Source: Nanobdellota archaeon (GTDB taxonomy: Archaea; Nanobdellota; Nanobdellia; Woesearchaeales; WJKV01). From it: 64,000 nt of DNA. Position 1 is the stretch's first letter. Every line of letters starts with the position of its first letter. The stretch is from assembly GCA_023133595.1 (NCBI GenBank), contig JAGLWF010000001.1, positions 33,693 to 97,692 on the forward strand, written 5' to 3'. Below, in pieces: positions 6,629 through 59,102 of the stretch. A program made the position numbers and the translations under genes. The notes under the pieces were generated by a model. That model made no database searches, was not told the origin of the DNA, and was given only the letters and a program-made list of their open reading frames with translations.

Positions 6629-6706
6629 CCACCCCTTTTTATATACTGAAATGAAGCATATATTTAAATATTTCCGACATTTCAGTTTCATAAAAGAGGG
6701 AAGATT
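6629..6706. promoter_or_regulatory. Divergent promoter region with palindromic TATA-like boxes (atatttaaatattt / tatatac)
   Basis: AT-rich intergenic region between the minus-strand ATPase start (6628) and the plus-strand ORF start (6707). TATA-like elements sit about 25-30 nt from both ATGs. Confidence 0.4.
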
Positions 6707-11610: not shown

Positions 11611-11853
11611 ATGATGGCAAGATTAGATCCTGAAAAGATAAGAAAGCAAGCTAAAAAGATTATGGATGAGTTTATTTCTGCATTAGACAAATGTCCAGAA
11701 GCCAAAAAATTAAGCTATGGCGCTCGTCGAGATAAAAACCAGAGGAAAGCTGGAAAGAGCAGGTACGAGAAGACAGATTTCCAAGAGAAAATTCTGGACA
11801 ATGCTCCGAAAGTCGACGACGACCAGATAGTTGCAGAGAAGAAGAAATGGTGA
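11611..11853 (+). CDS. gatC: Putative Asp/Glu-tRNA amidotransferase subunit C (GatC-like)
   Basis: 80 aa, immediately upstream of gatA and overlapping it by 7 nt. C-terminal ILDNAPKVDDDQIV resembles the GatC NAP motif. The N-terminal region is only weakly GatC-like. Confidence 0.45.
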   Translation: MMARLDPEKIRKQAKKIMDEFISALDKCPEAKKLSYGARRDKNQRKAGKSRYEKTDFQEKILDNAPKVDDDQIVAEKKKW

Positions 11854-13220: not shown

Positions 13221-13222
13221 AT

Positions 13223-14176: not shown

Positions 14177-14217
14177 AACCGAAGAGTTTATTAATGGTCT
14201 CTGATTTTTTATTCACA

Positions 14218-15984
14218 ATGAAAAGGACACACACATGCGGGGAACTCGTGAAAAAAGATGTCAAGAAAAAGGTAGTTCTACAAGGATGGGTCCATAAGAG
14301 AAGGGACCATGGAGGAATCATCTTCATAGATTTAAGAGACCGATACGGATTGACACAAATTGTATTCGACCCAAAGCACGAGAAAAAGACCCACGAACTC
14401 GCAGATACATTGAGAAGAGAGGATGTCATTGAGGTGGAAGGCAAGGTCAGGCCTAGACCAAAGACCATGATCAATAAGAAACTTCATACTGGAGAGATAG
14501 AAGTTATAATCAACCGTCTGGATATTCTGAACAAGGCAGCAACACCGCCGATAGAAGTTGACGATTACAAAGTTGCGAATGATGATCTAAGATTAAGGTA
14601 TAGATACCTGGATCTAAGAAGGCCGATGATGCAGAAATTTTTCATTGCAAGGCATAAGGCAACAATGGCTGCAAGAAATTATCTTGCATCACAAAATTTT
14701 TTAGAAATAGAAACACCGTTCTTTGTAAAGAGCACACCAGAAGGTGCGCGCGATTATATTGTCCCTTCCAGAGTCAATCCAGGACAATTCTATTCACTGC
14801 CGCAATCACCGCAGTTATACAAACAATTGCTCATGGTTGCTGGATTTGATAGATATTTTCAGGTAGTCAGATGCATGCGGGACGAAGACCTGCGTATTGA
14901 CCGGCAGCCAGAGTTCACGCAGATTGATATTGAGATGACATTTGCAGAGCAGGATGATGTTCTTGCTGCGATTGAAGGAACAGTGAAAGCAATATTCAAG
15001 GAAGCAATTGGAAAAAATATCAAGATACCTTTCAAGAGAATGCCGTACAAAGAATCAATGGACAAATACGGCACTGATAAACCCGACTTGCGATTCGGGC
15101 TCGAGCTTACAGAGATAACAGAAGAAGCAAAAGAAAGTGATTATGGAATTTTTAAAGGTGCAATAAAAAACAAAGGCATTGTCAAGTGTATACGTGTTCC
15201 TGTTGAACTATCCAGAAAACAGATAGATGATCTGACTAAATTTGCACAGAAATTCGGTGCAAAAGGTCTTTCATGGATGAGGATCACAAAAAAAGGACCA
15301 GAAAGTTCCATTGTAAAGTATTTTGGAAAGAAAGTTCTTGACAAGATACTGAAGAAAGCAAAAGCTAAACCAGGAACTTCATTATTGTTTATCGCAGACA
15401 AGCCCAGCATTGCAAATGATGTCCTAGCAAGGATCAGGCTTAAGTTTGGTGAAGACCTGAAATTATACAATCCAAAAGACCATAATTTTGCATGGATTGT
15501 TGATTATCCTTTATTCGAATGGAATGATGAAGAGAAGAAATGGGATCCTATGCATCACATCTTTAGCATGCCAAAAAAAGAATGCCTAAAGTATATGGAT
15601 ACTGATCCAGGAAAAGTATTGGCATCATTGTACGATCTAGTATTGAACGGGGTTGAGCTAGGATCTGGAAGCATAAGAAATCATGATCCTACACTGCAGG
15701 AAAAATCTTTCAAGATCATTGGTCTGAAAAAAGCAGAGGCAGAACAGAAGTTCGGCTTCCTACTGGAAGCTTTCAAGTACGGGGCACCGCCGCACGCAGG
15801 CTTTGCAATAGGCTACGATAGATTAGTCGCATTGATGCTTGGATTCCTGGATATCCGGGATGTCATTGCATTCCCAAAAAACAAAGCTGCGCAGTGTCCA
15901 ATGGATGGATGTCCAGGTCCTGTCGAAGACCAGCATCTCAAAGACCTGAATATCAAGCTTGACATGCCAAAGAAGAAAAAATAA
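14218..15984 (+). CDS. aspS: Aspartyl-tRNA synthetase, bacterial type (GAD insertion domain present)
   Basis: Class IIb motifs (FRDEDLRIDRQPEFTQID; GSGSIRNHD; GFAIGYDR). ~590 aa, as expected for the bacterial-type enzyme. Confidence 0.9.
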   Translation: MKRTHTCGELVKKDVKKKVVLQGWVHKRRDHGGIIFIDLRDRYGLTQIVFDPKHEKKTHELADTLRREDVIEVEGKVRPRPKTMINKKLHTGEIEVIINRLDILNKAATPPIEVDDYKVANDDLRLRYRYLDLRRPMMQKFFIARHKATMAARNYLASQNFLEIETPFFVKSTPEGARDYIVPSRVNPGQFYSLPQSPQLYKQLLMVAGFDRYFQVVRCMRDEDLRIDRQPEFTQIDIEMTFAEQDDVLAAIEGTVKAIFKEAIGKNIKIPFKRMPYKESMDKYGTDKPDLRFGLELTEITEEAKESDYGIFKGAIKNKGIVKCIRVPVELSRKQIDDLTKFAQKFGAKGLSWMRITKKGPESSIVKYFGKKVLDKILKKAKAKPGTSLLFIADKPSIANDVLARIRLKFGEDLKLYNPKDHNFAWIVDYPLFEWNDEEKKWDPMHHIFSMPKKECLKYMDTDPGKVLASLYDLVLNGVELGSGSIRNHDPTLQEKSFKIIGLKKAEAEQKFGFLLEAFKYGAPPHAGFAIGYDRLVALMLGFLDIRDVIAFPKNKAAQCPMDGCPGPVEDQHLKDLNIKLDMPKKKK

Positions 15985-16026
15985 TCCAGAGTAAGTTTTA
16001 TAAAGAAGAATCCGATCTGATAATGC

Positions 16027-17331
16027 ATGGCAGATAAAGAATTCATTTCTATCCAAGAAGCAATAGACAAAGGCGAAGGCAAAGTCGCTATTCGGGGATG
16101 GATATATCGTGAAAGAGGAAGTTCTAAGATCAAGTTTATTGTCATGCGTGACGAGACAAACATAATCCAATGTGTAATTGAGAAATCAAAAGTTGGAGAT
16201 GAAAAGTTCGATGTCGCAGACAAGCTACAGATAGAAGCTTCTATGAAGATCCATGGAACGATAAAAGAAGATAAGCGGGCTCCAACAGGATACGAGATAA
16301 ATGTTGATGATTTTGAAGTTGTAGGTCCTTGCGATACTTTTCCAATCTCAAAGGATCAGAGCCCGGAATTTCTGCTTGATAATAGACATCTCTGGATCAG
16401 AAGCAGGAAGATGGTTGCGACCATGAAAATAAGATCAACAATCATAGGAGCAATACATAAATTCTTCAGAGAAAAAGGATATATTGAATTTGATCCGCCA
16501 ATATTCCAGCCAACGCAGAGCGAAGGAGGATCAACAGTATTCAAAGTCGATTATTTTGGCGATACTACGTATCTTGCCCAGACCTGGCAATTTTATGCAG
16601 AAGCTGCGATCTTTGCACTGGGAAAAATCTACGATGTTTCTCCGACTTTCAGGGCTGAACGCTCAAAGACTTCAAGACATCTTACTGAATTCTGGATGGC
16701 TGAGATGGAAGCTGCATGGATGAACCTGCACAGTGTCACTGAAATTGCAAAAGAAGAGATCAGATTCATAATCAAAGAAGTTCTAAAGCATCATCAGAAA
16801 GAGCTTGAGTTACTGAAACGAGACACTAAGATACTTGAACATTATGCTGAAGCAGAATATCCAACAATAACATACAAAGAAGCATTAAAGATATTGAAAG
16901 AGAAATATAACATGGATGTCCAGTGGGGGAAAGATCTGAGGACAATAGAAGAAGAAAAGCTTGCAGATCATTTCAAGGTCCCTGTTGTTGTCACACACTA
17001 TCCTGTCGAGACAATGGCATTCTACAAACCAGAAGATCCAAAAGAGCCAGGGACAGCACTATGTTTTGACATGATCGCTCCAGAAGGATACTGCGAGATT
17101 GTCGGCGGATCACAGAGGAGCACAGATGTAGAAGATATGATCAAAAGATTGAAAGCAATGGGAGAGGATCCTAAGAATTATGAATGGTATTTTGATTTAA
17201 GGAAATATGGCAGTGTACCTCATTCAGGCTATGGTGTTGGCGTCGAACGTGTAATTGCCTGGATATGCGGATTAGAAAATATTAAAGATGCAATCGGCTT
17301 TCCGAGGACAATGCTGCGGAAAACTCCGTAA
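16027..17331 (+). CDS. asnS: Asparaginyl-tRNA synthetase
   Basis: 434-aa class IIb enzyme. RAERSKTSRHLTEFWMAEMEAAW matches the AsnRS-type HLAEFWMxEPE motif. TATA lies about 25 nt upstream of the ATG. Confidence 0.75.
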   Translation: MADKEFISIQEAIDKGEGKVAIRGWIYRERGSSKIKFIVMRDETNIIQCVIEKSKVGDEKFDVADKLQIEASMKIHGTIKEDKRAPTGYEINVDDFEVVGPCDTFPISKDQSPEFLLDNRHLWIRSRKMVATMKIRSTIIGAIHKFFREKGYIEFDPPIFQPTQSEGGSTVFKVDYFGDTTYLAQTWQFYAEAAIFALGKIYDVSPTFRAERSKTSRHLTEFWMAEMEAAWMNLHSVTEIAKEEIRFIIKEVLKHHQKELELLKRDTKILEHYAEAEYPTITYKEALKILKEKYNMDVQWGKDLRTIEEEKLADHFKVPVVVTHYPVETMAFYKPEDPKEPGTALCFDMIAPEGYCEIVGGSQRSTDVEDMIKRLKAMGEDPKNYEWYFDLRKYGSVPHSGYGVGVERVIAWICGLENIKDAIGFPRTMLRKTP

Positions 17332-17333
17332 AG

Positions 17334-17969
17334 ATGGCAAAGAAGAAAGCAAAAAAAAGAGGAAAGAAAAGAAAAGTTTCTGATATTGATTATCCTCTAG
17401 AGTTCAGAAGAGCAGTATTCCATCTCTGCGCAGGGCTCCTAGTCATTATTCTTACTCTCTTGCTCACAAAAGATTTTGTCATTCCGCTTCTAGGAACAAT
17501 CATTGTGATTGGTATTCTTCTGAGCCTGTTATGCAGAAGATACAAGCTTCCTGTCATTGAAACATTCCTTACATACTTTGAGCGGAAAGAGCATCGGAAA
17601 GTACATCCTGGAAGAGGGCCGTTGTTATTACTTGTCGGATGTTTTATCGCACTATTCATTTTCGAGTATAATACTGCGCTTGCCGCGATCATGATATTAG
17701 CGATCGGTGATTCATTCACAAACATATTCGGACCTTTCGGTAAGATGAAGACCAAACTGCACAGAAAAAAATTCTTGGAAGGGACAATCGCAGGAATTAT
17801 CGGAGCCACACTTGGTGCAATGCTTTTTGTTCCATTCGGGATTGCTTTTGTAGCGACATTAGTTGCTATGTTTGCAGAGCTTGTCGATCTGGAAAAATAT
17901 TATCTTGATGACAATATACTTATTCCAGTGGTTGCAGGACTCATAATGACTCTGCTTCTTGCTATTTAG
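17334..17969 (+). CDS. CTP-transferase-family membrane protein (CarS/CDP-archaeol synthase- or dolichol-kinase-like) with a Lys-rich N-terminus
   Basis: GDSFTNIFGPFGKMKTKLHRKKFLEGTIAGIIG fits the GD...G...KK..EG...G pattern of CdsA/dolichol-kinase/CarS proteins. About 5 TM helices. N-terminus MAKKKAKKRGKKRK. Confidence 0.45.
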   Translation: MAKKKAKKRGKKRKVSDIDYPLEFRRAVFHLCAGLLVIILTLLLTKDFVIPLLGTIIVIGILLSLLCRRYKLPVIETFLTYFERKEHRKVHPGRGPLLLLVGCFIALFIFEYNTALAAIMILAIGDSFTNIFGPFGKMKTKLHRKKFLEGTIAGIIGATLGAMLFVPFGIAFVATLVAMFAELVDLEKYYLDDNILIPVVAGLIMTLLLAI

Positions 17970-17974
17970 AGAAA

Positions 17975-19360
17975 GCATAGAAAATAAACTTGTGGCCTTC
18001 AACTTGTCGAGGGATTTCAAACTTTAGGCGAGCTAATATGATTTTGTGAATATTTTAATTTGTTTGTAATACTTATATCCCACTGGCCACTAGACATGTG
18101 CGCATAAGATATAAAAGGGAGTTTGTCCTTAACAATTGTATGATAGTTAACCGAATGTATAAATATCGTCTTTATCCAAATAAAGAACAAGTTAAACTTC
18201 TTACATCCCAACTGAAATCATTATGTAATATTTACAATCATTTATTGAAGATCAAGATCAATGTTTATAAAGAAAATAAGAGATCTCTTTCACGTAAAGA
18301 TCTCAATGCTTTAGTCAAAGCTTGGGATAAACACATTCATTCTCAAGTTCGTCAAAATGTTGCTGATCGAGTTGATAAAGCTTTTAATAATTTCTTCAAT
18401 CGTATTAAACTTAAAAAAAGCTATGCTAAAGTAAAAGTAGGTTTTCCGAGATTTAAAGCAGATCATAGATACAACAGTTTGACTTATCCTCAAAGTGGTT
18501 TTAATCTCTTAAATAATCGGATATTGCATTTATCTAAAATAGGGGATATTATTATTAAATTTCACCGTCCTATTGAAGGTAAAATCAAGACATTGAGTAT
18601 TAAACGCTCTCCAACTGGTAAATGGTATGTTTGTTTTAGCTGTGAAGTTCCTGTCACTAAAAAGCGTCACAAATTTTTAGATAAACAAGTTGGTATTGAT
18701 GTTGGTTTGGAGAATTTTGCTACATTGAGTACTGGTAATGTTATTACAAATCCTAGATATCTTATTAAAAGTGAGAACAAGCTTTCTAAATCTCAAAGAT
18801 GCTTAAGTAGAAAATTTAAAGGAAGTAAAAATCGAACCAAAGCTCGATTAAAGGTAGCGAAATTGCATGAGAAAATCACAAATCAAAGAATGGATTTTTT
18901 ACATAAACAAAGCCATTATCTCTCAAATACTTATAATTATATAGTTGTCGAATCTCTTAATATTAAAAATATGATGAAAAATCGTTATCTTGCAAAACAC
19001 ATTGCTGATGCTTCTTGGAATACCTTCATACAATTATTGTCTTACAAGGCTGCAAGTGCTGGAGGGCAACTCATTTGTGTGGATCCAAAATATACTTCAA
19101 TTAAGTGTAGTTGTTGTGGCAAAAATGTGCCAAAGAAACTTTCAGTTCGAGAACATAATTGCCCTTTTTGTGATTTGAAACTTCATCGCGATCATAATGC
19201 AGCAATTAACATTTTACACTCAAATAAAATACCGTTGGGACGGCGGGAATCTACGCCTGTGGAGATTTTCGATAGAAAATCGCTGAAACAGGACGCTCCG
19301 CAGCTTTAAGAAGGAGTAGTTCACAGAAACCCTTATAAAATCTAAATTATTTTGAACTCC
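17975..19360 (+). mobile_element. IS200/IS605-family TnpB-only (IS1341-type) insertion sequence; ends approximate
   Basis: A single tnpB with no tnpA, inserted between two housekeeping genes (17969 and 19362). About 185 nt of non-coding left end. Only about 50 nt remain to the right of the tnpB stop. Confidence 0.5.
18155..19309 (+). CDS. tnpB: TnpB (OrfB) RNA-guided endonuclease of the IS200/IS605 family
   Basis: N-terminal MYKYRLYPNKEQ. RuvC-I GIDVGLENFA, RuvC-II IVVESLNIKNM, a CxxC...CxxC zinc finger (KCSCCG...CPFCD), and RuvC-III HRDHNAAINI are all intact. Confidence 0.85.
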   Translation: MYKYRLYPNKEQVKLLTSQLKSLCNIYNHLLKIKINVYKENKRSLSRKDLNALVKAWDKHIHSQVRQNVADRVDKAFNNFFNRIKLKKSYAKVKVGFPRFKADHRYNSLTYPQSGFNLLNNRILHLSKIGDIIIKFHRPIEGKIKTLSIKRSPTGKWYVCFSCEVPVTKKRHKFLDKQVGIDVGLENFATLSTGNVITNPRYLIKSENKLSKSQRCLSRKFKGSKNRTKARLKVAKLHEKITNQRMDFLHKQSHYLSNTYNYIVVESLNIKNMMKNRYLAKHIADASWNTFIQLLSYKAASAGGQLICVDPKYTSIKCSCCGKNVPKKLSVREHNCPFCDLKLHRDHNAAINILHSNKIPLGRRESTPVEIFDRKSLKQDAPQL

Positions 19361-19361
19361 T

Positions 19362-20732
19362 ATGGCAGATGTGAAAGTTAAGATTGGGCTCGAGATACAC
19401 GGCTATCTTAAGATGAACGAGTCTAAGAAGAAATTGTTCTGTGATTGTGGTATTGGTGGAGAAGAACCAAATACAAAGATCTGCCCGATATGCACTGGCC
19501 AGCCAGGCAATAAACCAATGCTGCCAAACCAGGAAGCAGTGAAAAAGATTGTTGCCTGCGGTCTAATGCTAGGATGTAAAGTCAATAATTATTTATTATT
19601 CCAAAGAAAACATTATTCCTATCCTGATCTGCCAAACGGATACCAGAAAACTATATCTGGAGCATATTCTCATCCAGTTGGGGTTGAAGGAGAATATTTA
19701 GGGATCAGAATAGAAGAAGTGCATCTTGAGGAAGACCCTGCACGTTACGACCCGATAACTGGAAAAGTTGATTATAACAGATGCGGATATCCATTGATAG
19801 AGATTGTGACAAAACCAGACTTCACATCTTCTGATCAAGTCAGAGATTGGTTAAAGAGTATGTTGCGGACTCTAGGATATGTTAATGCAATCGATGCAGA
19901 TGTTGGAATCAAGTCAGATGTGAATGTTTCTATTGGTCCAAAATTCATACGGGCAGAGATAAAAAATGTTAATTCTATCAAGAGCATAATCGCTGCAATC
20001 GAATATGAGATCGAGCGGCAGAAGGAAGAAAAACCAAAAGTAATGGAGACACGTGCATGGGTTGATGATAAAGGCATTACAAAACATATGAGGAAAAAAG
20101 AGACAATATCACAATACATGTTCATCCCAGAACCAGATCTTCCTGTGATTGAACTAGATGATGATTATATCGATAAGATTGCTTCTAATCTGCCAGAGCG
20201 GCCAGAAGCAAAGATAGAGAAATTCACAAAATTAGGGATTCCTGTCTCTGATGCAACGATCCTAAGTGCAGAAATTGAACTGGCACATTTGTTTGAGAAA
20301 GTCGCAAAGAAGATAAATCCAGTTCTTGCTGCCAAATGGCTGAGGCGTGAGCTACTGCGTGTTCTTAATTATAACGAGAAAACAATATCAGAAGTGAAAC
20401 TTGACGAGAAATATTTGATCGAGCTTCTAAAACTTATTGAAGATAAGAAGATAACAGACAAGACCGGCCAAAGATTGATGGAAAAATTGATTGAGAAACC
20501 ATTCTCTCCAAAGAAATATGTACAAGAGCACGACCTAGCACAAGTGACAGGAACAAAAGACTTGGAGAAATGGTGCAAGGAAGCAATAAAAGAAAATAAA
20601 CAAGCTGTACAGGATTATAAAAAAGGAGAAACAAAAGCACTGAATTTTATTGTTGGAAGTGTGATGAAAAAGAGTAAAGGAAAGGCAAATCCTGGTGAAG
20701 TAACCAAAATACTAAAGAAATTGCTGAAATAA
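19362..20732 (+). CDS. gatB: Asp/Glu-tRNA amidotransferase subunit B
   Basis: N-terminal KIGLEIHGYL...KLFCDC. C-terminal YqeY-like tail (GSVMKKSKGKANPGEVTKILKKLL). Confidence 0.85.
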   Translation: MADVKVKIGLEIHGYLKMNESKKKLFCDCGIGGEEPNTKICPICTGQPGNKPMLPNQEAVKKIVACGLMLGCKVNNYLLFQRKHYSYPDLPNGYQKTISGAYSHPVGVEGEYLGIRIEEVHLEEDPARYDPITGKVDYNRCGYPLIEIVTKPDFTSSDQVRDWLKSMLRTLGYVNAIDADVGIKSDVNVSIGPKFIRAEIKNVNSIKSIIAAIEYEIERQKEEKPKVMETRAWVDDKGITKHMRKKETISQYMFIPEPDLPVIELDDDYIDKIASNLPERPEAKIEKFTKLGIPVSDATILSAEIELAHLFEKVAKKINPVLAAKWLRRELLRVLNYNEKTISEVKLDEKYLIELLKLIEDKKITDKTGQRLMEKLIEKPFSPKKYVQEHDLAQVTGTKDLEKWCKEAIKENKQAVQDYKKGETKALNFIVGSVMKKSKGKANPGEVTKILKKLLK

Positions 20733-31568: not shown

Positions 31569-31967
31569 ATGTTAACTCTACAATACGTCCCATTTGCAGA
31601 GATTGCTGGTCTGGATTCTGACGCGCGAATTAAGAAATTACTGAAACTGGCAAAGGATGAAAAGATTGTCCTTCTTGAGGGAAAACTGAAAAAAGAAGAA
31701 GAAACATATCTTATCCAAAAAACAATGGAAGCGATCGATGAATCATTTAAAGGAATCGAGATCGCATCGATCAATCCAAATGTCAAAGGACAAAAACCAT
31801 ATCATCTGATCAAGAATACTGTGATAAACCTGTTTCTCAGAGAGAGGACAGGAATAACAATCATCGGTCCTGCGACAATTATCAAACAAATAAAACGGGA
31901 TCCTGAAAAGATCCAGCTTCTGACAAAAAAAGCAAGGAAAAGAAGCAAACGAAAAAAGAAACAATAA
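31569..31967 (+). CDS. Small conserved-hypothetical protein (possibly DUF2073-like) with a basic tail, downstream of the GTPase
   Basis: Start moved to the ATG after AGAGGA. C-terminal KKARKRSKRKKKQ. Confidence 0.4.
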   Translation: MLTLQYVPFAEIAGLDSDARIKKLLKLAKDEKIVLLEGKLKKEEETYLIQKTMEAIDESFKGIEIASINPNVKGQKPYHLIKNTVINLFLRERTGITIIGPATIIKQIKRDPEKIQLLTKKARKRSKRKKKQ

Positions 31968-31976
31968 AAGGTAAAA

Positions 31977-32372
31977 ATGCCGCACCAATGCGTAAGATGC
32001 AATACATTATATGATGATGGAGCAAACGAGCTCCTTGCAGGCTGCAGTTGCGGTGCAAAACTTTTCTTCTACGTGCGCAAGGATAATATTTCTACAATCA
32101 AAAAGACAACAGAGAGGCTGACAAAAAAAGAGATCAAACGAATAGAACAGGATGTTCGTGAGATGGTCGGCACAGATGGCGGAGAATCCCCAGTGATCCT
32201 TGATTTTGAATCGATCCGGATCCCAAAACAAGGCCAGTACCATCTTGATCTAGTGCATCTTTTCAAGGGAGAACCGCTTGTCTATCGTCTTGAAGATGGC
32301 AAGTATATAATAGATATCCCTAGTTCTTTCCAGATGGCTAAGCACAAGCAAAAGGACACAAAAAAAGAATAG
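31977..32372 (+). CDS. Zn-ribbon-containing small protein (DUF2072-like)
   Basis: N-terminal CVRCN...CSCG zinc ribbon. 131 aa. Confidence 0.45.
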   Translation: MPHQCVRCNTLYDDGANELLAGCSCGAKLFFYVRKDNISTIKKTTERLTKKEIKRIEQDVREMVGTDGGESPVILDFESIRIPKQGQYHLDLVHLFKGEPLVYRLEDGKYIIDIPSSFQMAKHKQKDTKKE

Positions 32373-32963: not shown

Positions 32964-35273
32964 ATGGCAGACGAGAAGCAAAAAAAAGAGATAAAGCTGA
33001 AAGTTACTGAAGCTGTACAGGATGATGTAAATAAAGGTATAGTCAGAATTGATTCTAATTTTATGCAGCAGATTGATGTCAAGCCAGGGGATATTGTAGA
33101 GATAGAAGGCGGAAGAAAGGCTGCAGGCATTGTTGGAAGGGCATATCCAGGGGACATTGGCTTCAATATTATCAGGACAGATTCTCTTATCAGGAGAAAT
33201 GCAAAGACTGGTATTGGCGAGATGGTCACTATCAGAAAAGCAGATGTTCTGGAAGCACAGAAGATTACAATCGCACCTGCGCGAAAAGATGTACGGATAA
33301 GTGCTTCGCCTGTTGTTTTCAAGCGCGGACTTTTAGGTCGTGTTGTTCGAAGAGGAGATCTTGTATCATTAGGCGGTGCAATCAACAGAAAGACAACAAT
33401 GGCTGATAATCCTTATTTTGATGATATATTTTCAAGCATGTTTGATGATAACTTTGGATTCGGAGGGTTTGCTCTGGGAAGTATCAAGTTCATGGTCACA
33501 GATGTAAAACCATCAAAAGCTTTTCTGATTGTCACTGAGAATACAGAGATCGATTTCAGACCAGAAGCAGTTGAGATCGGAGATGATGATGAAGAAAAGA
33601 CAATCGAGATTGCATACGAAGACATTGGCGGACTTGATGAAGAAATCAAAAAGATACGAGAGATGGTAGAACTGCCATTAAAACATCCAGAAATTTTCCA
33701 GAGATTAGGAATCGAACCGCCGAAAGGAGTCTTGCTCCATGGTCCTCCTGGAACTGGAAAGACTTTGCTGGCTAAAGCTGTTGCGAACGAGACAAACAGC
33801 AACTTCATATTGATCAATGGTCCAGAGATCATGGGAAAATTCTACGGACAAAGTGAAGAAAACCTAAGAAAGAAGTTTGCAGACGCAGACAAGCATGCAC
33901 CTTCGATCATATTCATTGACGAGATTGATGCGATCGCGCCAAAAAGAGAGGAAGTGCACGGAGAAGTGGAGAGAAGAGTTGTTGCTCAACTGCTCGCGTC
34001 TATGGACGGTCTGAAGAGCAGAGGCAAAGTTGTTGTCATTGCTGCAAGCAATATGCCAAATTCACTTGATCCTGCTTTGAGAAGGCCAGGAAGATTTGAT
34101 CGTGAGATCGAGATAGGTGTTCCAAAGGCAAGTGGAAGATTGAAGATTCTTAAGATTCATACACGAAACATGCCGCTCGATAAAAAAGTTGATCTTAAAA
34201 AGATAGCAGATATAACACACGGTTTTGTCGGAGCAGATCTGGCTGCGCTAGCTAAAGAAGCTGCAATGATTGTTCTTAGAGAAATATTGCCAGATCTAAA
34301 ATTAGATGAGGAAGAACCGATCCCAAGAGAAATTCTGGAAAAGATGACGATAAAACAAAGTGATTTCATTGACGCGCTTAAAGTTGTGCGTCCATCTGCA
34401 CTGAGAGAAGTACTGATCGAGATTCCAGATGTTTCATGGGATGATATTGGTGGACTGGATCATGTGAAGCAGGAACTGAAAGAAGCTGTTGAATGGCCTT
34501 TGAAATTTTCAGAATCATTCAGACGTCTCGGAATAAAACCGCCAAAAGGTGTTCTGATCTACGGTGCGCCTGGAACTGGAAAGACTTTGCTTGCAAAAGC
34601 AGTAGCTCACGAATCAGAAGCTAATTTCATACTAGTCAAAGGGCCTTCAATGTTATCCAAGTGGGTTGGAGAATCTGAAAAGGGTGTACGAAAAATATTC
34701 GACAAAGCCAGACAGTCAGCACCATGCATCATATTCTTTGACGAGATTGACAGTATTGCCCCAAAACGCGGTCAGAGCAGTGATAGCCAAGTAACTGAAA
34801 GAGTTGTCAACACATTGTTGACAGAGATGGATGGACTAGAAGAATTACATGATATTGTTATCATAGCAGCGACAAACAGACCAGACATCCTAGATACTGC
34901 ACTATTACGGCCTGGAAGATTCGACAGGATCATAATGGCAGATGTCCCAGATCTTGAGACACGAGAAAATATCTTTGCAGTGCATACAAAAAGTATGCCT
35001 CTAAAGGTTGTGGATATTAAGGAATTGGCAAAAAATACAGAAGGCTATGTTGGAGCTGATATTGAAGCAGTCTGCAGAGAAGCTGCAATGCTTGCTTTGC
35101 GTGAGGATATAAAAGCAACAAAAGTCACAAAGAAACATTTTGAAGAAGCCATTCAAAAAGTCAATCCAAGTGCAACAAAAGATATCCAAGCAGCGTATTC
35201 CAAGATGATGAATAAGTTTAAGCAAGCTACTGCAAAAGAAATGCAGGAAGAAAAACCTAGTTATTTAGGATAA
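32964..35273 (+). CDS. cdc48: Cdc48/VCP/p97-like AAA+ ATPase with two AAA domains
   Basis: N-domain followed by two Walker A sites ([13 protein letters not shown] and [13 protein letters not shown]), Walker B DEID, and SRH regions. Confidence 0.9.
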
Positions 35274-35283
35274 ATCCTTATCG

Positions 35284-35388
35284 TACATGCATAGCACGCT
35301 CCACTAGATCAATAATATGAGTTAGAAGACGAGTCTAGGGAACTAGCCTGTTTGATCTGAAAGCTACGCTTGGTGCTATGCACATACT
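35284..35388 (+). repeat. ~105-nt element with 15-nt imperfect terminal inverted repeats (GTACATGCATAGCAC ... GTGCTATGCACATAC) and a central agaagacgagtcta motif; copy A
   Basis: A second, inverted copy lies at 42267-42368 with conserved ends and a similar length. Both copies end 43-44 nt upstream of an ATG, with a TATA box in between. Confidence 0.6.
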
Positions 35389-35431
35389 TCCTATCAAAAG
35401 GTTTATATATCGATTTGCTCTTTTTCTTTTC

Positions 35432-36754
35432 ATGATTGCAAAGATAGGTGATAAAGTCCGGATCAAAACAAAAGACCGGGAGATTCTTGGAGTTGTGATG
35501 CCTAACGAGACAGATACCTTAGTGCTAAAGCTTGATAGCGGGTATAATGTTGGAATCGACAAAAGAAAGATCAAGAAAACTGAGATTGTTGAAAAATACA
35601 ATCCTGGAAAAGAGGGGCCGCTAAAAACCAAGAAACCAAAGAAAGATCTGCCTGAGATTGCGATTCTCCATACTGGAGGAACCATTGCTTCTAAAGTTGA
35701 TTATAGGACTGGAGGTGTTGTTTCAAAGTTCACACCAGCAGAAATCCTGAAGATGTTCCCTGAATTGAAAGATATTGCAAATATTTCTTCAAAACTTTTG
35801 TTCAATATCTGGACAGAAGATATGCGTTTTGCAAATATCAAAAAAATAGCACAAGCAATCATGGACGAAGCAACAGATATTGTAGAAGGAAGAAGTGGAG
35901 TCAAGGGAGTTATTTTAACATTAGGGACTGATATACTGCCTATTGTTTCTGCTGCTCTTGCTTTCATGCTACAAAAATTACCAATTCCAGTAATACTTGT
36001 CGGTGCACAACGTTCTTCAGATAGGGGAAGTAGTGATGCTGCAATGAATCTTGTATGTGCAGCTGAATTCATTAAACAATCTGACTACAAAGGGATTGCA
36101 ATCTGTATGCACGCTTCATCTGACGATAAAGGATGTCATATTCTGCATCCCTGCAAAACAAGAAAGATGCATACCTCAAGAAGGGATGCTTTCAGGCCGA
36201 TCAATTGCAAGCCAATAGCAAAAATTGATTATCATACGCGAAAAATAGTATACCTTCAGGGATTTGATGTATATGACCCTGCGATATCTGAAAAATTAGC
36301 ACTAGAAGAAAAAGTTGGGCTGGTAAAGACCTATCCAAACATGTTTCCAGGACTAATTGACGCTTTCAAAGGCTTCAAAGGTCTTGTGATAGAAGGCACT
36401 GGTCTGGGCCATATGCCTGCTGCTTCTCAAAATAAAGAGAATAAATTGAACATTAAAATATTTGATGCTATAAAACGTCTAATCAAGAGTGGTTGTGTTG
36501 TTGTGATGACAAGTCAATGCGTCTATGGTGGAGTTCAGATGCATGTATACTCCAAAGGCATTGATCTGGTGAACGCAGGAATAATTCCAGCAAAGATGCT
36601 TCCAGAGACTGCATATATCAAACTTGCATGGTTATTAGGCAATTATTGCAAGAAAGGTGCAAAGAAAGATATTGAGAATGTCAAGAGGATGATGCAGCAA
36701 AACCTCGTCGGTGAAATGTTCGAAGTTATTGAGAAAGACACTTTTCTGATTTAA
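35432..36754 (+). CDS. gatD: Glu-tRNA(Gln) amidotransferase subunit D (asparaginase-like)
   Basis: Start moved to MIAKIGDKVRI. The ORF-track ATG lies inside the repeat element. Asparaginase motifs ILHTGGTIAS and GVILTLGTDIL. Confidence 0.8.
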   Translation: MIAKIGDKVRIKTKDREILGVVMPNETDTLVLKLDSGYNVGIDKRKIKKTEIVEKYNPGKEGPLKTKKPKKDLPEIAILHTGGTIASKVDYRTGGVVSKFTPAEILKMFPELKDIANISSKLLFNIWTEDMRFANIKKIAQAIMDEATDIVEGRSGVKGVILTLGTDILPIVSAALAFMLQKLPIPVILVGAQRSSDRGSSDAAMNLVCAAEFIKQSDYKGIAICMHASSDDKGCHILHPCKTRKMHTSRRDAFRPINCKPIAKIDYHTRKIVYLQGFDVYDPAISEKLALEEKVGLVKTYPNMFPGLIDAFKGFKGLVIEGTGLGHMPAASQNKENKLNIKIFDAIKRLIKSGCVVVMTSQCVYGGVQMHVYSKGIDLVNAGIIPAKMLPETAYIKLAWLLGNYCKKGAKKDIENVKRMMQQNLVGEMFEVIEKDTFLI

Positions 36755-36824
36755 TTTCTTGTTTTGAATATTATTACTTCTTATCTATATTGGATGATAG
36801 AAAATGAAAGAATTCTTGTTGTAA

Positions 36825-36862
36825 GTTTGCCCCTTTGCGGGGCAGACTTAAAGATTTTTTTA
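36825..36862 (+). terminator. Hairpin (GUUUGCCCC-UUUGC-GGGGCAGAC) followed by a T7 tract
   Basis: 9-bp stem with one G-U pair, about 70 nt after the gatD stop, then ttaaagatttttttag. Confidence 0.5.
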
Positions 36863-37105
36863 GCGTCTCTATTTATCTTTTCTTTTTCTTCTTTTTCTTT
36901 TTGGTTGCTTTCTTTTTCTTTGCCATAACTATCACCTCAATTTGTATTTAAATATGTATAATTATATTTAAATGTTTCGAAAATTCGTATATGATTTCTA
37001 AAAACTATTAATCGTTTTGATTTTTTTCAGGATCAGAGCGAAAAAATCCGAAAACCAGAAGAAATTATCAAAATCTATATAAACAAGCAAATCTCATTGA
37101 AGATT

Positions 37106-38536
37106 ATGAAACGTGATTACAAAAAATTAGGGTTCAAGAGCGGACTTGAAGTGCATCAACAACTAGAAACTCATAAATTATTCTGCAATTGCCCGTCGCT
37201 GGTGCGCGGCAAAAAGAAGGATGTCAAGGTTGAAAGGCAACTGCGTGCAGTTGCTGGAGAAATGGGCAAAATCGATATTGCTGCAGCGTATGAGATGGAG
37301 AAAGGAAAAAAATTCATCTATGTTGGAGATTCTGATGATGTCTGTCTTGTTGAATTAGATGAAGAACCGCCGCATCCAATCAACCAAGAAGCACTGCAGA
37401 TCGCGCTTCAGATCGCAAAGATGATGAATGCTACAATTGTTGATGAAATCCAGGTCATGCGAAAGGTTGTTGTTGACGGCTCTAATGTTTCTGGGTTCCA
37501 GAGAACTATGCTGATAGCTACAGATGGCTTTATCGAAACTTCCAAAGGAAAAGTACGGATTCCTGGAATTTATCTTGAAGAAGAGGCCTGTCAAAGGCTA
37601 GATGAGGATAAAACATCCATAACCTGGGGCCTTGATCGATTAGGGATCAGTCTAATGGAAATAGCAACAGATACAGACATCAAGGATGCAGAACATGCAA
37701 AAGAAACAGCAGAAAAGATCGGTATGATCATGCGATCGACAGGGAAAGCAAAGAGAGGGATAGGAACTATCAGGCAGGACGTGAACATGTCTATCAAAGG
37801 ACATCCGCGGGTTGAGATCAAGGGTTTCCAAGACCTGAAATCAATGCCGAAGATTATTGAGAATGAGATAAAACGCGAGCTAAAAGAGATGAAGAAGAAA
37901 AAGAAGCTGGAGCCACACGTAAGAAAGGCAAATGCTGATGGCACAACAGATTATCAGCGGCCAATGCCTGGTGCTAAGCGTATGTATCCTGAGACTGATA
38001 TTGCTCCGATCAAGCCAGAAGCAAAAGGAATCAAGAAAGTTGAATTAATCGCAGATAAGGCTGAAAAAATAAAAAAGCTGGGGCTTGGAAAAGATCTTGC
38101 GAATCTTATTGCAAAAGAAGGATTGACAGACAAAATATCTGTGTTTGCAAAGAAATTCAAGAATGTGAAACCTGCATTTATTGCAGAAACAATGCTTCCG
38201 ACAATGAAAGAATTAAAACGAAAGTTTAATGTCGCGATTGAAAATATCACTGACAAACATTTTGAAGCAATATTTGATGCTGTTGACAAAGGAAAGATTG
38301 CAAAAGATTCTGTAATCGAAGTCATGAAGCGCATTCCAAAAGAGAAAGATGTTGTGAAGATAATGAAAGATTACACCCAGATGTCTGAGAAAGATCTTGA
38401 GAAAGAACTAAAGAAGATCGCAGAAGAGATGAAAGGCGCTCCATTCGGCGCAGTAATGGGAAAAGCAATGGGCAAGTTCAAAGGCAAAGCATCAGGCCAA
38501 AAAATAAGCGAGATATTGAAGAAGCTGTTGAAATGA
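37106..38536 (+). CDS. gatE: Glu-tRNA(Gln) amidotransferase subunit E (short form)
   Basis: N-terminus MKRDYKKLGFKSGLEVHQQLETHKLFCNCP is GatE-type. Start moved from the TTG to the ATG. The YqeY-like tail is present. It is about 140 aa shorter than typical GatE. Confidence 0.7.
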   Translation: MKRDYKKLGFKSGLEVHQQLETHKLFCNCPSLVRGKKKDVKVERQLRAVAGEMGKIDIAAAYEMEKGKKFIYVGDSDDVCLVELDEEPPHPINQEALQIALQIAKMMNATIVDEIQVMRKVVVDGSNVSGFQRTMLIATDGFIETSKGKVRIPGIYLEEEACQRLDEDKTSITWGLDRLGISLMEIATDTDIKDAEHAKETAEKIGMIMRSTGKAKRGIGTIRQDVNMSIKGHPRVEIKGFQDLKSMPKIIENEIKRELKEMKKKKKLEPHVRKANADGTTDYQRPMPGAKRMYPETDIAPIKPEAKGIKKVELIADKAEKIKKLGLGKDLANLIAKEGLTDKISVFAKKFKNVKPAFIAETMLPTMKELKRKFNVAIENITDKHFEAIFDAVDKGKIAKDSVIEVMKRIPKEKDVVKIMKDYTQMSEKDLEKELKKIAEEMKGAPFGAVMGKAMGKFKGKASGQKISEILKKLLK

Positions 38537-43149: not shown

Positions 43150-43635
43150 TTACCTTCTCCTCTTTTTTCTCTTGGTGGTTTTCTTTTTCTTCTTTACTTT
43201 CTTCTTTGTCTTTCGCTTTACTTTTCTCTTCTTCACTTTCTTCTTTGCTTTTCTCTTAGGTTTCTTCTTTGCCTTTCTCTTCTTCACTTTCTTCTTTGCT
43301 TTTCTCTTAGGTTTCTTTTTTGCTTTTCTCTTCTTCACTTTCTTCTTTGTCTTTCGCTTTACTTTTCTCTTCTTTGCCTTTTTCTTAGCTTTTTTCTTTC
43401 GTCGCTTTCCACCACGAGCCATCTTTACCATAGCTACATCTCCAGCTTTGTCGATGAAGTATAGATAGCCAGGTTTTCGCTTTACGCCAACTTTAGCAAC
43501 TATGGTTTGCCTCTGTTTGCCTTTTTTACCGCCACCTCTGGACATTTTAGCCATAGCTACATTTCCTCTCTTGTCCAAGAAGTAAAGGTATCCTTTTTTT
43601 CGTTTGACACCAACTTTTGCTACTTTTGTTGCCAT
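43150..43635 (-). CDS. Basic protein with a duplicated ~35-aa N-terminal motif (VAKVGVKRKxGYLYFxDKxGxVAMxKMxRGG) and a long Lys/Arg-rich tail; putative nucleoid/chromatin protein
   Basis: 161 aa. GAGGTGAT RBS. The tail contains the direct repeat KKKVKKRKAKKKPKRKAKKKVKKRK. A consensus promoter (aaacatttaaatatg) is at 43650-43690. Confidence 0.6.
   Translation of the reverse strand: MATKVAKVGVKRKKGYLYFLDKRGNVAMAKMSRGGGKKGKQRQTIVAKVGVKRKPGYLYFIDKAGDVAMVKMARGGKRRKKKAKKKAKKRKVKRKTKKKVKKRKAKKKPKRKAKKKVKKRKAKKKPKRKAKKKVKKRKVKRKTKKKVKKKKKTTKRKKRRR
43190..43400. repeat. Tandem DNA repeats encoding the KR-rich tail
   Basis: The ~54-nt unit tcttcactttcttctttgcttttctcttaggtttctt... occurs twice, with partial copies flanking. 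Confidence 0.6.
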
Positions 43636-43766
43636 TGGATATCACCTCTCAAATATATAAAAAACAGAAATCATATTTAAATGTTTTCCTTTTTTCTCGT
43701 CGAGCCCTCGTCGGAACACCGAGGAGATCTCGAGGAAGATTAGTAATTGCACGATAGTGTCAAAAA

Positions 43767-43901
43767 CGGACCTGGGGGGATTCGAACCCCCGACCTACAG
43801 CTTTCCACCAAAAAGTTAGGAGGCTGTTGCCCTATTTACCCTACCGGGCAAATCCGACAAATCCTGTCGAATTTGTAGTATCCAGGCTAGGCTACAGGTC
43901 C
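43767..43901 (-). tRNA. tRNA-Arg (anticodon CCU) containing two introns: ~46 nt in the D-loop and ~14 nt in the anticodon loop
   Basis: Acceptor GGACCUG/CAGGUCC with discriminator G. T-arm GGGGG-UUCGAAU-CCCCC. Variable loop AGGUC. Anticodon stem ACAGC/GCUGU enclosing CUCCUAA plus 14 nt. D-stem GCCU/GGGC separated by 55 nt. Total length 135 nt. Confidence 0.65.
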
Positions 43902-43935
43902 ATAAAACAAAAAGAGAAGCAGTGGATTAAAAAGT

Positions 43936-45300
43936 TTACCTCTTTTTTCGAGGCTTTTTCGCCTTTTTGACAAGCTTTTTCTTTGCTTTTGGCTTGACCT
44001 TTACTTTCTTCTTTTCTTTCTTTGCTTTGCCAATTACCTTGATTCCATTCATATAGGGCACTAAAACTGCTGGAACCTTGATTGTACTGTCTTTCTGCTG
44101 GTAATTCTCAAGAACAGCGACTAAGGCTCTTGATGTCGGAAGGGCGGTTGCATTCAGCGCGTGTACCAGAGCTTTCTGACCACCAACTCTTCCAGATTTT
44201 ATGTTCAATCGCCTGGTCTGATAATCTGTACAATTCGACGCAGAAAAGATCTCGCAATACTTTCCCTGGCGCGGAGACCAGTATTCAGTATCATACTTTT
44301 TTGCAGCAACCTGACCGAAATCTCCAGCACATACATTGACAACGCGATATGGAATCTTTAGCGCCCTCAGTATCCCTTCACCATTCTTTACTAATTCTTC
44401 ATGAAGCTTCCAGCTATCCTCTGGCTTGCATATTATCACCTGTTCAACTTTATTGAACTGGTGCGTCCTAAATAATCCTTTTGTATCGATTCCGCGAGAA
44501 CCGATCTCACGCCTGAAGCACATGCTATATCCTGTTAGCTTGATCGGAAGAGATTTGTCATCTATAACCTCGTTCATGTACTGCCCTACTAAAGGATGCT
44601 CTGAAGTAGCAATAAGATAAAGATCATTGCCATCAATCTTGTACATAACAGTCTCAAAGTCTCCTAGATCAACCACTCCTTCGTATGATTTACGATTCAT
44701 CATCAAAGGAGGCTCTACCAAGGTATATCCTTTTTTGATCATGAAATCTATTGTAAACCTCAATAATGCCTGATTCAACATTGCTAATCCTCCTTTCAGG
44801 AAATAGAAACCACGGCCAGCTAATTTTGCGCTTCTCTCAAAATCAAGGATGTTTAATTGCTCCCCAAGCTCGACATGATTTTTCAATGGAAATTTTGATT
44901 TCTTTGCAACACCCCATTTCCGCACTTCAACATTATCTGCATCATCCTTGCCATAAGGTACAGATTCGTGCAAAAGATTTGGAATAGCCATCATATCTGC
45001 TCGAATCTCCTTCCTAAGCTTCAGCTCTTTTGCATCTGCATCTATAATCTTCTTTGGAAGAGCTTTCATCTCTTTGATCTTTGTATCGATCTTCTTTCCT
45101 TTCTTCTTTAGTTCGCGGATCTCAAGTGTGATAGAATTCTTCTTGTGCCTCAATTGCTGAAGCCCGTATGTCAATTTGCGCCATTCTGCATCCTTTTTTC
45201 TGACATCATCAACTTTCTTCAGAAGTTCAGGTTGCTTTCTTTTTTTCAGGTTTTTCTTGACCTTTTCTGGCTCATTACGTATCAGATTTATGTCTATCAT
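43936..45300 (-). CDS. serS: Seryl-tRNA synthetase with a ~30-aa Lys-rich C-terminal extension
   Basis: N-terminal coiled-coil arm. Class II motifs (FRREIGS; GLFRTHQF). Tail GKAKKEKKKVKVKPKAKKKLVKKAKKPRKKR. Confidence 0.85.
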   Translation of the reverse strand: MIDINLIRNEPEKVKKNLKKRKQPELLKKVDDVRKKDAEWRKLTYGLQQLRHKKNSITLEIRELKKKGKKIDTKIKEMKALPKKIIDADAKELKLRKEIRADMMAIPNLLHESVPYGKDDADNVEVRKWGVAKKSKFPLKNHVELGEQLNILDFERSAKLAGRGFYFLKGGLAMLNQALLRFTIDFMIKKGYTLVEPPLMMNRKSYEGVVDLGDFETVMYKIDGNDLYLIATSEHPLVGQYMNEVIDDKSLPIKLTGYSMCFRREIGSRGIDTKGLFRTHQFNKVEQVIICKPEDSWKLHEELVKNGEGILRALKIPYRVVNVCAGDFGQVAAKKYDTEYWSPRQGKYCEIFSASNCTDYQTRRLNIKSGRVGGQKALVHALNATALPTSRALVAVLENYQQKDSTIKVPAVLVPYMNGIKVIGKAKKEKKKVKVKPKAKKKLVKKAKKPRKKR

Positions 45301-46864: not shown

Positions 46865-46935
46865 ACAAATATATAAGCTTTTTGTTTTGATTCTAGCAAG
46901 ATTTATAAAAAGATAATTTTACTAAATCATATTAT

Positions 46936-47009
46936 GGGGACATAGTTTAACCTGGCTAGAGCGGCCGGCTCCAGACCGGCAAATCGGGGTTCAAATCCCC
47001 GTGTCCCCA
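46936..47009 (+). tRNA. tRNA-Trp (anticodon CCA), no intron, CCA not encoded
   Basis: Acceptor GGGGACA/UGUCCCC with discriminator A. Anticodon arm GCCGG-CUCCAGA-CCGGC. T-arm CGGGG-UUCAAAU-CCCCG. aaatatataagc TATA about 55 nt upstream. Confidence 0.8.
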
Positions 47010-47076
47010 TTTTATAGTCCCAGTAATTTTAAATAATGAAGATATTTCTCTCGAAAAGTGGAGCGGGGGTTTAAAA

Positions 47077-58175: not shown

Positions 58176-58931
58176 CTATTTTCTTAATACAAATATCATG
58201 TCACTTCCTATTTTTGGAAACCAGTCTCCCAAGCGAATCGCTATCTCTTTCAAAAATTTAGGAGCAAATCTTGATCTCATTGGAAAAGTGACATTGGAAG
58301 TTACAATCGAGATGATATTTAATTTATACTCCTTAAGCTGCTGTTTCAGTATCGGGACTGTATAAGCTCTGATGTGACCTGCTCCGCCAGGTATGCGATA
58401 TTCAGGGACAAAATTCGGATATTTTCCAAACAATATCCTAACACGGTTTGTCAGAGAAACCAGGTTTGGGGTTGTCAAGATTAAGATCCCTCCTTTTCTT
58501 AATACTCTTTTCAGTTCTGAAATGAAAAAGTCAGTGTCATACAGATGCTCGATTACTTCAGATGCCAGAACTAGATCAAAAGACCCGTCGGGATACGGTA
58601 TGGCTTTCTCAAGATTATGCACTTTAGCCTTGACACCCCTATTATTGGCTGATTTAACTGCATTTTTAGAGATATCAATACCATGCGTCTCAAATCCAAA
58701 GTCTTTTTTTAATTTTGCAGAAAAAGAACCATCAGCACATGCGACATCTAAGGTTTTTTGAAATCTATATTTTCTATTTAATCTTCTAATGATCCTATAG
58801 ATCTTAAAGATGTAGTATTTATGCTTGTCAAACGCACGATATTCTGAATATCTTTTATCCTGGTCAGTCTCAGCATTGATAGCTTTCTTCATATGTTCAG
58901 CAAAAAATATCCAATTAATAAATATATTCAT
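58176..58931 (-). CDS. Class I SAM-dependent methyltransferase (start uncertain: 58931 or 58892)
   Basis: LDVACADGSF (motif I), GIDIS, and LVLASEVIEHL (type-11 MTase-like). The ORF-track start (58970) would overlap the 5S rRNA. Confidence 0.6.
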   Translation of the reverse strand: MNIFINWIFFAEHMKKAINAETDQDKRYSEYRAFDKHKYYIFKIYRIIRRLNRKYRFQKTLDVACADGSFSAKLKKDFGFETHGIDISKNAVKSANNRGVKAKVHNLEKAIPYPDGSFDLVLASEVIEHLYDTDFFISELKRVLRKGGILILTTPNLVSLTNRVRILFGKYPNFVPEYRIPGGAGHIRAYTVPILKQQLKEYKLNIISIVTSNVTFPMRSRFAPKFLKEIAIRLGDWFPKIGSDMIFVLRK

Positions 58932-58944
58932 TAGAAAATAAAGG

Positions 58945-59057
58945 TGGACAGTTTTCCTAGTTTCCCGCATATAAATGCAGTACAGCTAAAAACGGTAACC
59001 TGCTTAACTTCCGAGTTCGAAATGGGATCGGGTGAACCAGGTCCCTATGACCGTCCA
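58945..59057 (-). rRNA. 5S ribosomal RNA (stand-alone, ~113 nt)
   Basis: The minus strand reads ...CCCGAUCCCAUUUCGAACUCGGAAGUUAAGC..., the universal 5S loop C/helix III core. Terminal helix I UGGACGGU/ACUGUCCA. Confidence 0.75.
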
Positions 59058-59102
59058 TATCGAGATATCTAAGAGGTATTTATAAAGGTTTTGGATATAA
59101 AC

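Follow-up and report, generated by a model that had tools for sequence, protein, structure and literature searches.

A tRNA-Arg(CCU) gene with two predicted bulge-helix-bulge introns, one of them in the D-loop, in a Woesearchaeota-type DPANN archaeon

The main result of this work is the assignment, at a probability that we put at about nine in ten, of a 135-nt locus to a functional gene for tRNA-Arg(CCU) in a DPANN archaeon of the Woesearchaeota type; the precursor transcribed from it would carry two protein-spliced introns of the bulge-helix-bulge (BHB) type. The locus lies on the minus strand of a 64-kb stretch of DNA that was analyzed as a whole and is here called the window. Directly observed are the geometry of the splicing motifs, the restoration of the cloverleaf, the conservation of the exons, covariation, and the presence or absence of introns. 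A first-pass annotation had already read the locus as a tRNA-Arg(CCU) gene whose D-loop and anticodon loop each hold an intron, and this assignment is borne out by the BHB geometry, by the tRNA finder ARAGORN, by an ortholog (L014) that is devoid of the anticodon intron and by covariation across 43 introns.

Gene layout and detection by tRNA finders

Positions within the gene are counted along the 135-mer from G1 (43901) on the minus strand, and this count is referred to as the gene index. The gene and its immediate surroundings comprise the following features.

43767..43901, minus strand: pre-tRNA-Arg(CCU) gene, 135 nt (sequence; ARAGORN on spliced forms; 75/75 exon identity with L014)
43882..43901, minus strand: exon 1, gene index 1-20, with the acceptor 5' strand, U8 and A9, D-stem GCCU and D-loop AGCCUGG to G19 (sequence and ARAGORN)
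43836..43881, minus strand: intron 1, 46 nt, gene index 21-66, in the D-loop between G19 and A20 (strict hBHBh'; ARAGORN after removal; homologs)
43817..43835, minus strand: exon 2, gene index 67-85, with A20, U20a and A21, GGGC, A26, ACAGC and CU-CCU-A37 (sequence and ARAGORN)
43803..43816, minus strand: intron 2, 14 nt, ACUUUUUGGUGGAA, gene index 86-99, at the canonical position 37/38 (ARAGORN; register scoring; indel against L014)
43767..43802, minus strand: exon 3, gene index 100-135, with A38, GCUGU, variable loop AGGUC, T-arm, CAGGUCC and discriminator G (sequence, ARAGORN and T-arm scan)
43926..43939, minus strand: putative promoter, BRE-like GUAAAC followed by TATA-like TTTTTAAT, at -38 to -25 from G1 (read from sequence)
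43762..43766, minus strand: TTTTT adjoining the discriminator base, probably an archaeal transcription stop

The gene extends from G1 (43901) to the discriminator G73 (43767) and does not encode the CCA end; its anticodon, CCU, occupies 43820-43818 on the minus strand. In the precursor RNA, the 5' part reads GGACCUG-UA-GCCU-AGCCUGG, then intron 1 (AUACUACAAAUUCGACAGGAUUUGUCGGAUUUGCCCGGUAGGGUAA), then AUA-GGGC-A-ACAGC-CUCCUA, and the 3' part consists of intron 2 followed by A-GCUGU-AGGUC-GGGGG-UUCGAAU-CCCCC-CAGGUCC-G. The acceptor stem (GGACCUG/CAGGUCC), the T-arm (GGGGG/CCCCC, with loop UUCGAAU) and the anticodon stem (ACAGC/GCUGU, with loop CU-CCU-AA after splicing) are Watson-Crick in all of their 7/7, 5/5 and 5/5 pairs, in agreement with the perfect stems described in the first-pass annotation. 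The sizes that it had given (135 nt for the gene, about 46 and 14 nt for the inserts and 75 nt for the mature tRNA) are likewise correct, as judged from the sequence and from ARAGORN on spliced forms, and the D-stem halves it had named, GCCU and GGGC, are indeed separated by a normal D-loop plus the 46-nt insert.

Once spliced, the 75-nt tRNA has a normal D-arm, GCCU/AGCCUGGAUA/GGGC, and carries U8, A14, G18 and G19, A20 and the UUCGAAU T-loop (ARAGORN). Its identity as an arginine isoacceptor follows from CCU at positions 34-36 of a 7-nt loop and from A20 in the D-loop, the latter being a classical identity element for ArgRS. The gene is also richer in G+C than its surroundings (53% versus 37.8% for the window). 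Since its three exons are colinear within 135 nt, it is neither a split nor a permuted tRNA gene. Neither intron contains a C box (RUGAUGA) or a D box (CUGA), as a C/D guide RNA of the tRNA-Trp type would. Group I introns are self-splicing ribozymes with a core of roughly 200 nt or more, and this class was rejected for inserts of just 46 and 14 nt with no Rfam intron match.

Standard tools do not see this gene. ARAGORN reports no tRNA in the unspliced 135-mer, even in intron mode; when the 46 nt are removed it returns tRNA-Arg(cct) with a 14-nt canonical intron, i(40,14), and when both inserts are removed it returns an intron-free 75-nt tRNA-Arg(cct). Run with default settings on the window, it does not report the tRNA-Arg. 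Rfam yields no tRNA at the locus either at the gathering threshold (window) or at E<=10 (43650-44000), and a permissive Rfam search of 43650-44000 gives T-arm fragments alone, scored under unrelated families. Together, default ARAGORN and Rfam recover only a tRNA-Trp (46935-47010) and a 5S rRNA from the window, in which combined T-arm and BHB scans found no further hidden tRNA beyond tRNA-Trp and tRNA-Arg(CCU). The identical locus is present in three independent assemblies, namely an NCBI MAG (GCA_030630885.1, contig DAOVMF010000002.1), an ENA assembly and the Logan assembly of SRR13892600, and it is thus not an assembly artefact.

The rest of the window provides some genomic context. The tRNA-Trp(CCA) gene at 46935-47010 (plus strand) is intron-free, and the stand-alone 5S rRNA gene at 58943-59058 (minus strand) shares 28 nt with the start of a methyltransferase ORF (58176-58970) as defined by its ATG, which suggests that the ORF probably starts further downstream. 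Two stretches, 11847-20732 and 35378-38536, form a tRNA-charging cluster with a GatA-like amidase, AspRS and GatB, and with GatD and a GatE-like gene farther along; both amidotransferase systems appear to be present in the window. The AspRS has a GAD domain (bacterial type), and the next gene is a second class-II one, AspRS/AsnRS-like. At 31569-32372 (plus strand), OapB adjoins OapC (origin-associated proteins), upstream of Cdc48 (32964-35273), and a replication origin may lie near this pair. A 1328-aa ORF at 2840-6826 (minus strand) encodes a type II/IV secretion (VirB11/T2SSE-like) ATPase split by an intein with a LAGLIDADG homing-endonuclease domain (Pfam), and 18140-19309 (plus strand) encodes a TnpB / IS605 OrfB transposon-associated nuclease with HTH and Cas12f-like TNB domains, a mobile element in a small DPANN genome.

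The two introns and their proposed splicing

To place the introns, every pair of cut sites was scored for the archaeal 3-4-3 bulge-helix-bulge geometry. The D-loop insert has AUA at both of its ends, and four cut registers therefore give one identical product. The BHB geometry selects a single one of the four, 19/20, with cuts at 20|21 and 66|67, where it forms a strict hBHBh' motif with a 4/4 central helix H, a 4-bp outer helix h and a 4-bp inner helix h'. In gene-index numbering, the motif and the hairpin that it encloses are made up as follows.

43877..43891, minus strand: D-loop BHB 5' strand, gene index 11-25, with h C11-A14, H G15-U18, bulge G19 G20|A21 and h' U22-U25
43831..43845, minus strand: D-loop BHB 3' strand, gene index 57-71, with h' G57-A60, H G61-U64, bulge A65 A66|A67 and h U68-G71
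43849..43875, minus strand: inner hairpin of intron 1, gene index 27-53, 11 bp CAAAUUCGACA/UGUCGGAUUUG with loop GGAUU (MFE fold)

The outer helix consists of the pairs C11-G71, C12-G70, U13-A69 and A14-U68, the central helix of G15-U64, C16-G63, C17-G62 and U18-G61, and the inner helix of U22-A60, A23-U59, C24-G58 and U25-G57, next to which comes the 11-bp hairpin. When strictness is defined as H 4/4 with h and h' of at least 4 bp each, 8% of the 135-mers shuffled by dinucleotide contain a motif of this kind at some site, with a mean of 0.09 over some 7,900 site pairs, and the probability of meeting it by chance at the single register that restores the D-arm is thus on the order of 1e-5. The minimum free energy fold of the precursor is not the BHB, the D-arm being paired differently with the intron, and the BHB-enforced fold lies only 3.4 kcal/mol above it (-53.8 versus -57.2).

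The hairpin that the first-pass annotation had quoted inside the D-loop insert, CGACAGGAUUUGUCG, is present and constitutes the tip of the CAAAUUCGACA/UGUCGGAUUUG stem. The 3' part of intron 1 also contains a tandem near-repeat, GGAUUUGUC / GGAUUUGCC (43849-43862, minus strand), and the upstream CAAAU is able to pair with either copy, giving two alternative hairpins. The doubled arm is seen also in the related loci L013, L014 and L055, and it may be a trace of intron growth. A blastn-short search with the 46-nt intron found no further copies in the window and, among the fetched loci, matched only L001-L003, which hold the same locus, and 16 nt of L013; this lack of dispersed copies gives no sign of a mobile intron here.

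The BHB of intron 2 is relaxed. Register scoring gives it an h of 5 bp (the anticodon stem), an H of 3/4 (C-G, U-G, a C x U mismatch and C-G), an h' of 1 bp, and bulges UA|A and AA|A. Among related genes, roughly every second canonical intron is as imperfect as this one. BHB motifs thus flank both introns.

The splicing endonuclease EndA recognizes the pseudo-symmetric BHB independently of the tRNA body and cuts each bulge between its second and third bases. We infer cleavage, ligation and the enzymes involved from the sequence, and on that basis the path to the mature tRNA would run as follows. In the precursor, the repeat in the 5' half of the D-arm (GCCU-A-GCCU-GG) would pair in a shifted register, leaving the D-stem unformed: CCUA would pair with UAGG of the 3' exon as the outer helix h, GCCU with GGGU at the 3' end of the intron as the central 4-bp helix H, and the intron ends with each other (UACU/GGUA) as h', with GG|A and AA|A left over as 3-nt bulges. 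EndA would cut each bulge after its second base, and the 3' cut would leave A20 at the start of the 3' exon. An RtcB-type ligase would then join the exons, after which GCCU(10-13) would pair with GGGC(22-25) and the D-loop AGCCUGGAUA would form. Intron 2 would be removed likewise, from the relaxed BHB at 37/38. A tblastn and phmmer search with M. jannaschii EndA (query sequence verified against PDB 1A79) found no EndA in the 64-kb window or the 76 fetched loci, and in Pfam scans that took in 50 of the 55 window ORFs there was no EndA or RtcB domain.

Homologous genes and alternative readings of the locus

The ortholog L014, from Candidatus Woesearchaeota FT6_98, shares with the window the gene order SerRS - tRNA - Lys-rich ORF, with SerRS proteins that are 83% identical and Lys-rich ORFs that are 95% identical over the N-terminus. 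In the window, the SerRS gene (43936-45300, minus strand) has a Lys-rich C-terminal extension of about 30 aa, and the 161-aa Lys-rich ORF (43150-43635, minus strand) shows an internal duplication of its N-terminal segment, has a poly-K/R tail and matches nothing in Pfam. The exons of the two tRNA genes are identical at 75/75 positions. Their D-loop introns are homologous and diverged (36/46 identical, two indels); among other differences, L014 has U-A in place of a U.G pair of h' and G-C in place of a G.U pair of H. The 14-nt anticodon intron is missing from L014 as a clean indel, a presence/absence polymorphism between the two genes. The flanks are only 63-70% identical (43/68 upstream), and amid this diverged upstream DNA the block AAACTTTTTAATC is kept; at the 3' end, L014 has CTTTT where the window has TTTTT. 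Both the block and the 3' T-run would fit an archaeal BRE/TATA promoter and terminator. The L014 pattern is the one to be expected of a functional gene with two dispensable introns, and it also assigns the organism of the window to the DPANN archaea of the Woesearchaeota type.

This comparison bears directly on the possibility that the locus is a decaying pseudogene or relic, in which the inserts are junk and the whole is non-functional. Such a reading would account for the failure of standard tools to call a tRNA at the locus and for the imperfect BHB of the anticodon intron, but the exons have remained identical to those of L014 while introns and flanks diverged by 22-37%, which points to purifying selection on the exons. 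Every stem is perfect, moreover, a conserved TATA-like box and T-run flank the gene, and the BHB is maintained by compensatory changes in 43 homologs. We consider a pseudogene very improbable and retain the reading of a functional tRNA-Arg(CCU) gene.

The homologs were collected with a pattern of this D-arm, then an insert, then a T-arm, which gave 35 loci in a scan of one genome per GTDB species and 38 loci in a scan of metagenomes. Each locus was solved by BHB scoring combined with ARAGORN, and those left unsolved, among them L016, L035, L044/L070, L045, L054, L059 and L063, were not counted. The scans yielded 52 other tRNA-Arg(UCU/CCU) genes with a D-loop intron at the identical site in Woesearchaeota, Asgard archaea and metagenomes, or 53 with the window gene. 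In all 53 the 5' cut falls after G19 and the 3' exon begins with A, with intron lengths of 17-47 nt. The D-loop intron is the sole one in 26 genes, is accompanied by an intron at 37/38 in 20 and belongs to a set of three in 7. The third intron lies at a fixed T-loop site, about 59/60, in 6/7 of the three-intron genes, and in one further gene with a T-loop intron the solver picked a slightly weaker register. The carriers of T-loop introns (L042, L043, L050, L052, L057, L066 and L074, from metagenomes) have them at mature index 61, with lengths of 15-84 nt, H 4/4 and an h of 5 bp, and 6/7 have the D-loop and 37/38 introns as well. L069 and L076 show an extra intron at mature index 44/45.

By record label, the genes from the genome scan come from 8 Woesearchaeota MAGs, 13 Asgard MAGs (Promethearchaeota, Hod-, Hermod- and Thorarchaeota), 1 unclassified archaeon and 2 MAGs labelled Methanosarcinales. 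Four MAGs in all (L004, L005, L016 and L024) bear the label 'uncultured Methanosarcinales archaeon'; they hold tRNA-Arg(UCU) genes with exons like those of Woesearchaeota and metagenome genes, and the D-loop intron was solved in two of them, only a canonical intron was found in one, and L016 was left unsolved. The taxon labels or the binning of these MAGs may be wrong. Among tRNAs with this D-arm in the genome scan, D-loop introns are confined to tRNA-Arg (24 solved genes). The matches other than tRNA-Arg with a D-loop intron, all with the same D-arm, are tRNA-Met, tRNA-Leu, one tRNA-Arg and a few unresolved ones, and the nine among them that were solved or recognizable have anticodon-side introns only.

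Covariation was measured on 43 distinct versions of the intron, as gapless, fixed-length pieces around the two splice sites, by counting the 12 pairs of the BHB. U8-G19 is identical in 43/43 aligned homologs, but that stretch was set by the search patterns. Over the 43 sequences, 89% of BHB cells are paired, as opposed to 26-53% when the partners are slid by 1-3 columns. The inner helix h' changes on both sides at 4/4 of its pairs, in 82 cells versus 25 +/- 5 in shuffles, none of 500 reaching as high a count. Both strands of h' are intronic and took no part in the choice of introns, and the covariation of this helix is therefore an independent test. The central helix H varies on the intron side only (GGGU, GGGC, AGGC, AGGU and others), nearly always remaining complementary to the exon GCCU, and the interior of intron 1 is free to vary in both length and sequence. 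The motif is thus kept by compensatory change as the interior drifts, the pattern looked for in a BHB intron.

The same data weigh on the idea that the 46-nt insert is retained and enlarges the D-arm of the mature tRNA. The insert ranges from 17 to 47 nt without a conserved interior, and the parts that are conserved and covary are exactly the BHB-forming ends; retention would, in addition, break the contact of G18/G19 with the T-loop and displace A20. For published D-loop introns of this form, splicing has been seen both in vivo and in vitro (PMC5829648), and we regard retention as highly implausible.

Equally hard to credit is an alternative cloverleaf that starts inside intron 1 at gene index 46 (43856), after a 45-nt leader, with acceptor CGGAUUU and D-arm GGUAGGGUAAAUAGGGC: ARAGORN does report a tRNA-Arg at [46,122] when the anticodon intron alone is removed, and a similar one at [45,120] in L014, but its acceptor would have to include two G.U pairs and draw the discriminator base into the stem, CC replaces U8-A9, the D-stem has 3 bp with a mismatch, and the perfect and invariant tRNA 5' 20-mer upstream is left unexplained. 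L014, with the same exons as the window, offers this cloverleaf no independent support, and L013 keeps the intron segment GGATTTGCC although its acceptor, GGGCCCG/CGGGCCC, cannot pair with it; the index-46 acceptor, therefore, does not covary. The spliced cloverleaf with its two BHB introns is thus the structure that we carry forward.

Relation to known tRNA introns and evolutionary meaning

Multi-intron tRNAs with D-loop introns have been described before, and the window gene hence belongs to a known type. The pre-tRNA-Glu(UUC) of Methanopyrus kandleri similarly has two EndA-type introns, one in the D-loop (20b/21) and one at 37/38 (Kaneta et al. 2018, PMC5829648). Its mature tRNA is confirmed. 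The two genes differ in tRNA identity (Glu versus Arg). The D-loop intron of M. kandleri lies two to three nt further 3' and has a relaxed HBh' motif; in the window gene, the strict hBHBh' belongs to the D-loop intron and the relaxed motif to the canonical intron. Their hosts are a hyperthermophilic euryarchaeon with an (alpha-beta)2 EndA and a low-GC DPANN archaeon, respectively. The pre-tRNA-Thr(UGU) of Aeropyrum pernix also resembles the window gene in its D-loop BHB intron, which is excised efficiently in vitro by archaeal endonuclease (PMC3241643, as cited in PMC5829648). It differs in its crenarchaeal host, in an (alpha-beta)2 EndA with a Crenarchaea-specific loop, in having a single non-canonical intron and in being another tRNA. 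More generally, tRNAs of Thermoproteales, ARMAN-2, Asgard and DPANN archaea share with the present gene short BHB introns at non-canonical sites that are missed by standard finders, and across them sites such as 20/21 and 59/60 are used, with up to three or four introns per gene (PMC4033280, PMC3239211, PMC11291895, PMC5829648).

The first-pass annotation had held that multiple, non-canonical tRNA introns are restricted to a few archaeal lineages and imply a broad-specificity endonuclease. The first of these statements is overstated and out of date. Descriptions exist for Crenarchaeota (above all Thermoproteales), N. equitans, M. kandleri, K. cryptofilum and ARMAN (PMC4033280), with intron positions 20/21, 22/23, 59/60 and others on record (PMC4090602), and such introns are documented across TACK, Asgard and DPANN archaea, M. 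kandleri, Hadesarchaea and others (PMC5829648, PMC11291895, PMC4033280), and our scans add 52 genes. Introns interrupt 92-95% of the tRNA genes in some Asgard genomes, often several to a gene (PMC11291895), and the survey of PMC5829648 took in DPANN genomes, one Woesearchaeota genome among them. The second statement is justified only in part. It is the canonical 37/38 intron that has the relaxed motif and the D-loop intron that has the strict one, and a strict 3-4-3 hBHBh' is what alpha4 and alpha2 (also written alpha'2) enzymes need (PMC3239211); the D-loop motif would accordingly be acceptable even to them. The same paper, however, has the typical alpha4 enzyme acting at the canonical position only, and the strictness of the BHB thus does not settle the question of broad specificity. 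Alpha4-type EndAs with an 'L3' insertion have been linked to increased tRNA gene disruption (PMC5829648).

The two-intron structure itself is ordinary and common in this lineage. For the G19/A20 intron of tRNA-Arg(UCU/CCU) that recurs in Woesearchaeota and Asgard archaea, we found no dedicated description in a literature search that was incomplete and is hence no proof of novelty. One interpretation, which we hold to be possible but rather unlikely, is that it constitutes one orthologous intron of great age, which DPANN (Woesearchaeota) and Asgard archaea have in common at one fixed site. The constancy of the site is plausibly explained by the repeat in the D-arm of tRNA-Arg (GCCU-A-GCCU-GG ... 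A-UAGG), which supplies half of the splicing motif. As an alternative to common descent, the intron may have been inserted repeatedly at a site predisposed by this exon repeat, and the data from the 53 genes fit both scenarios.

The gene does not change the understanding of what archaeal tRNA introns do, but it adds a clean example of a textbook strict BHB at a non-canonical site, and the comparative set documents the use of one D-loop site in the tRNA-Arg of two distant archaeal superphyla. Because default ARAGORN and Rfam miss the gene, routine annotation would call tRNA-Arg(CCU) missing, here and in many DPANN and Asgard MAGs, and such misses would underestimate genome completeness or lead to wrong inferences on codon usage. 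If the intron did prove to be old and orthologous, it would rank among the most widely conserved non-canonical tRNA introns and would serve to trace deep relationships among archaea or the gain and loss of introns.
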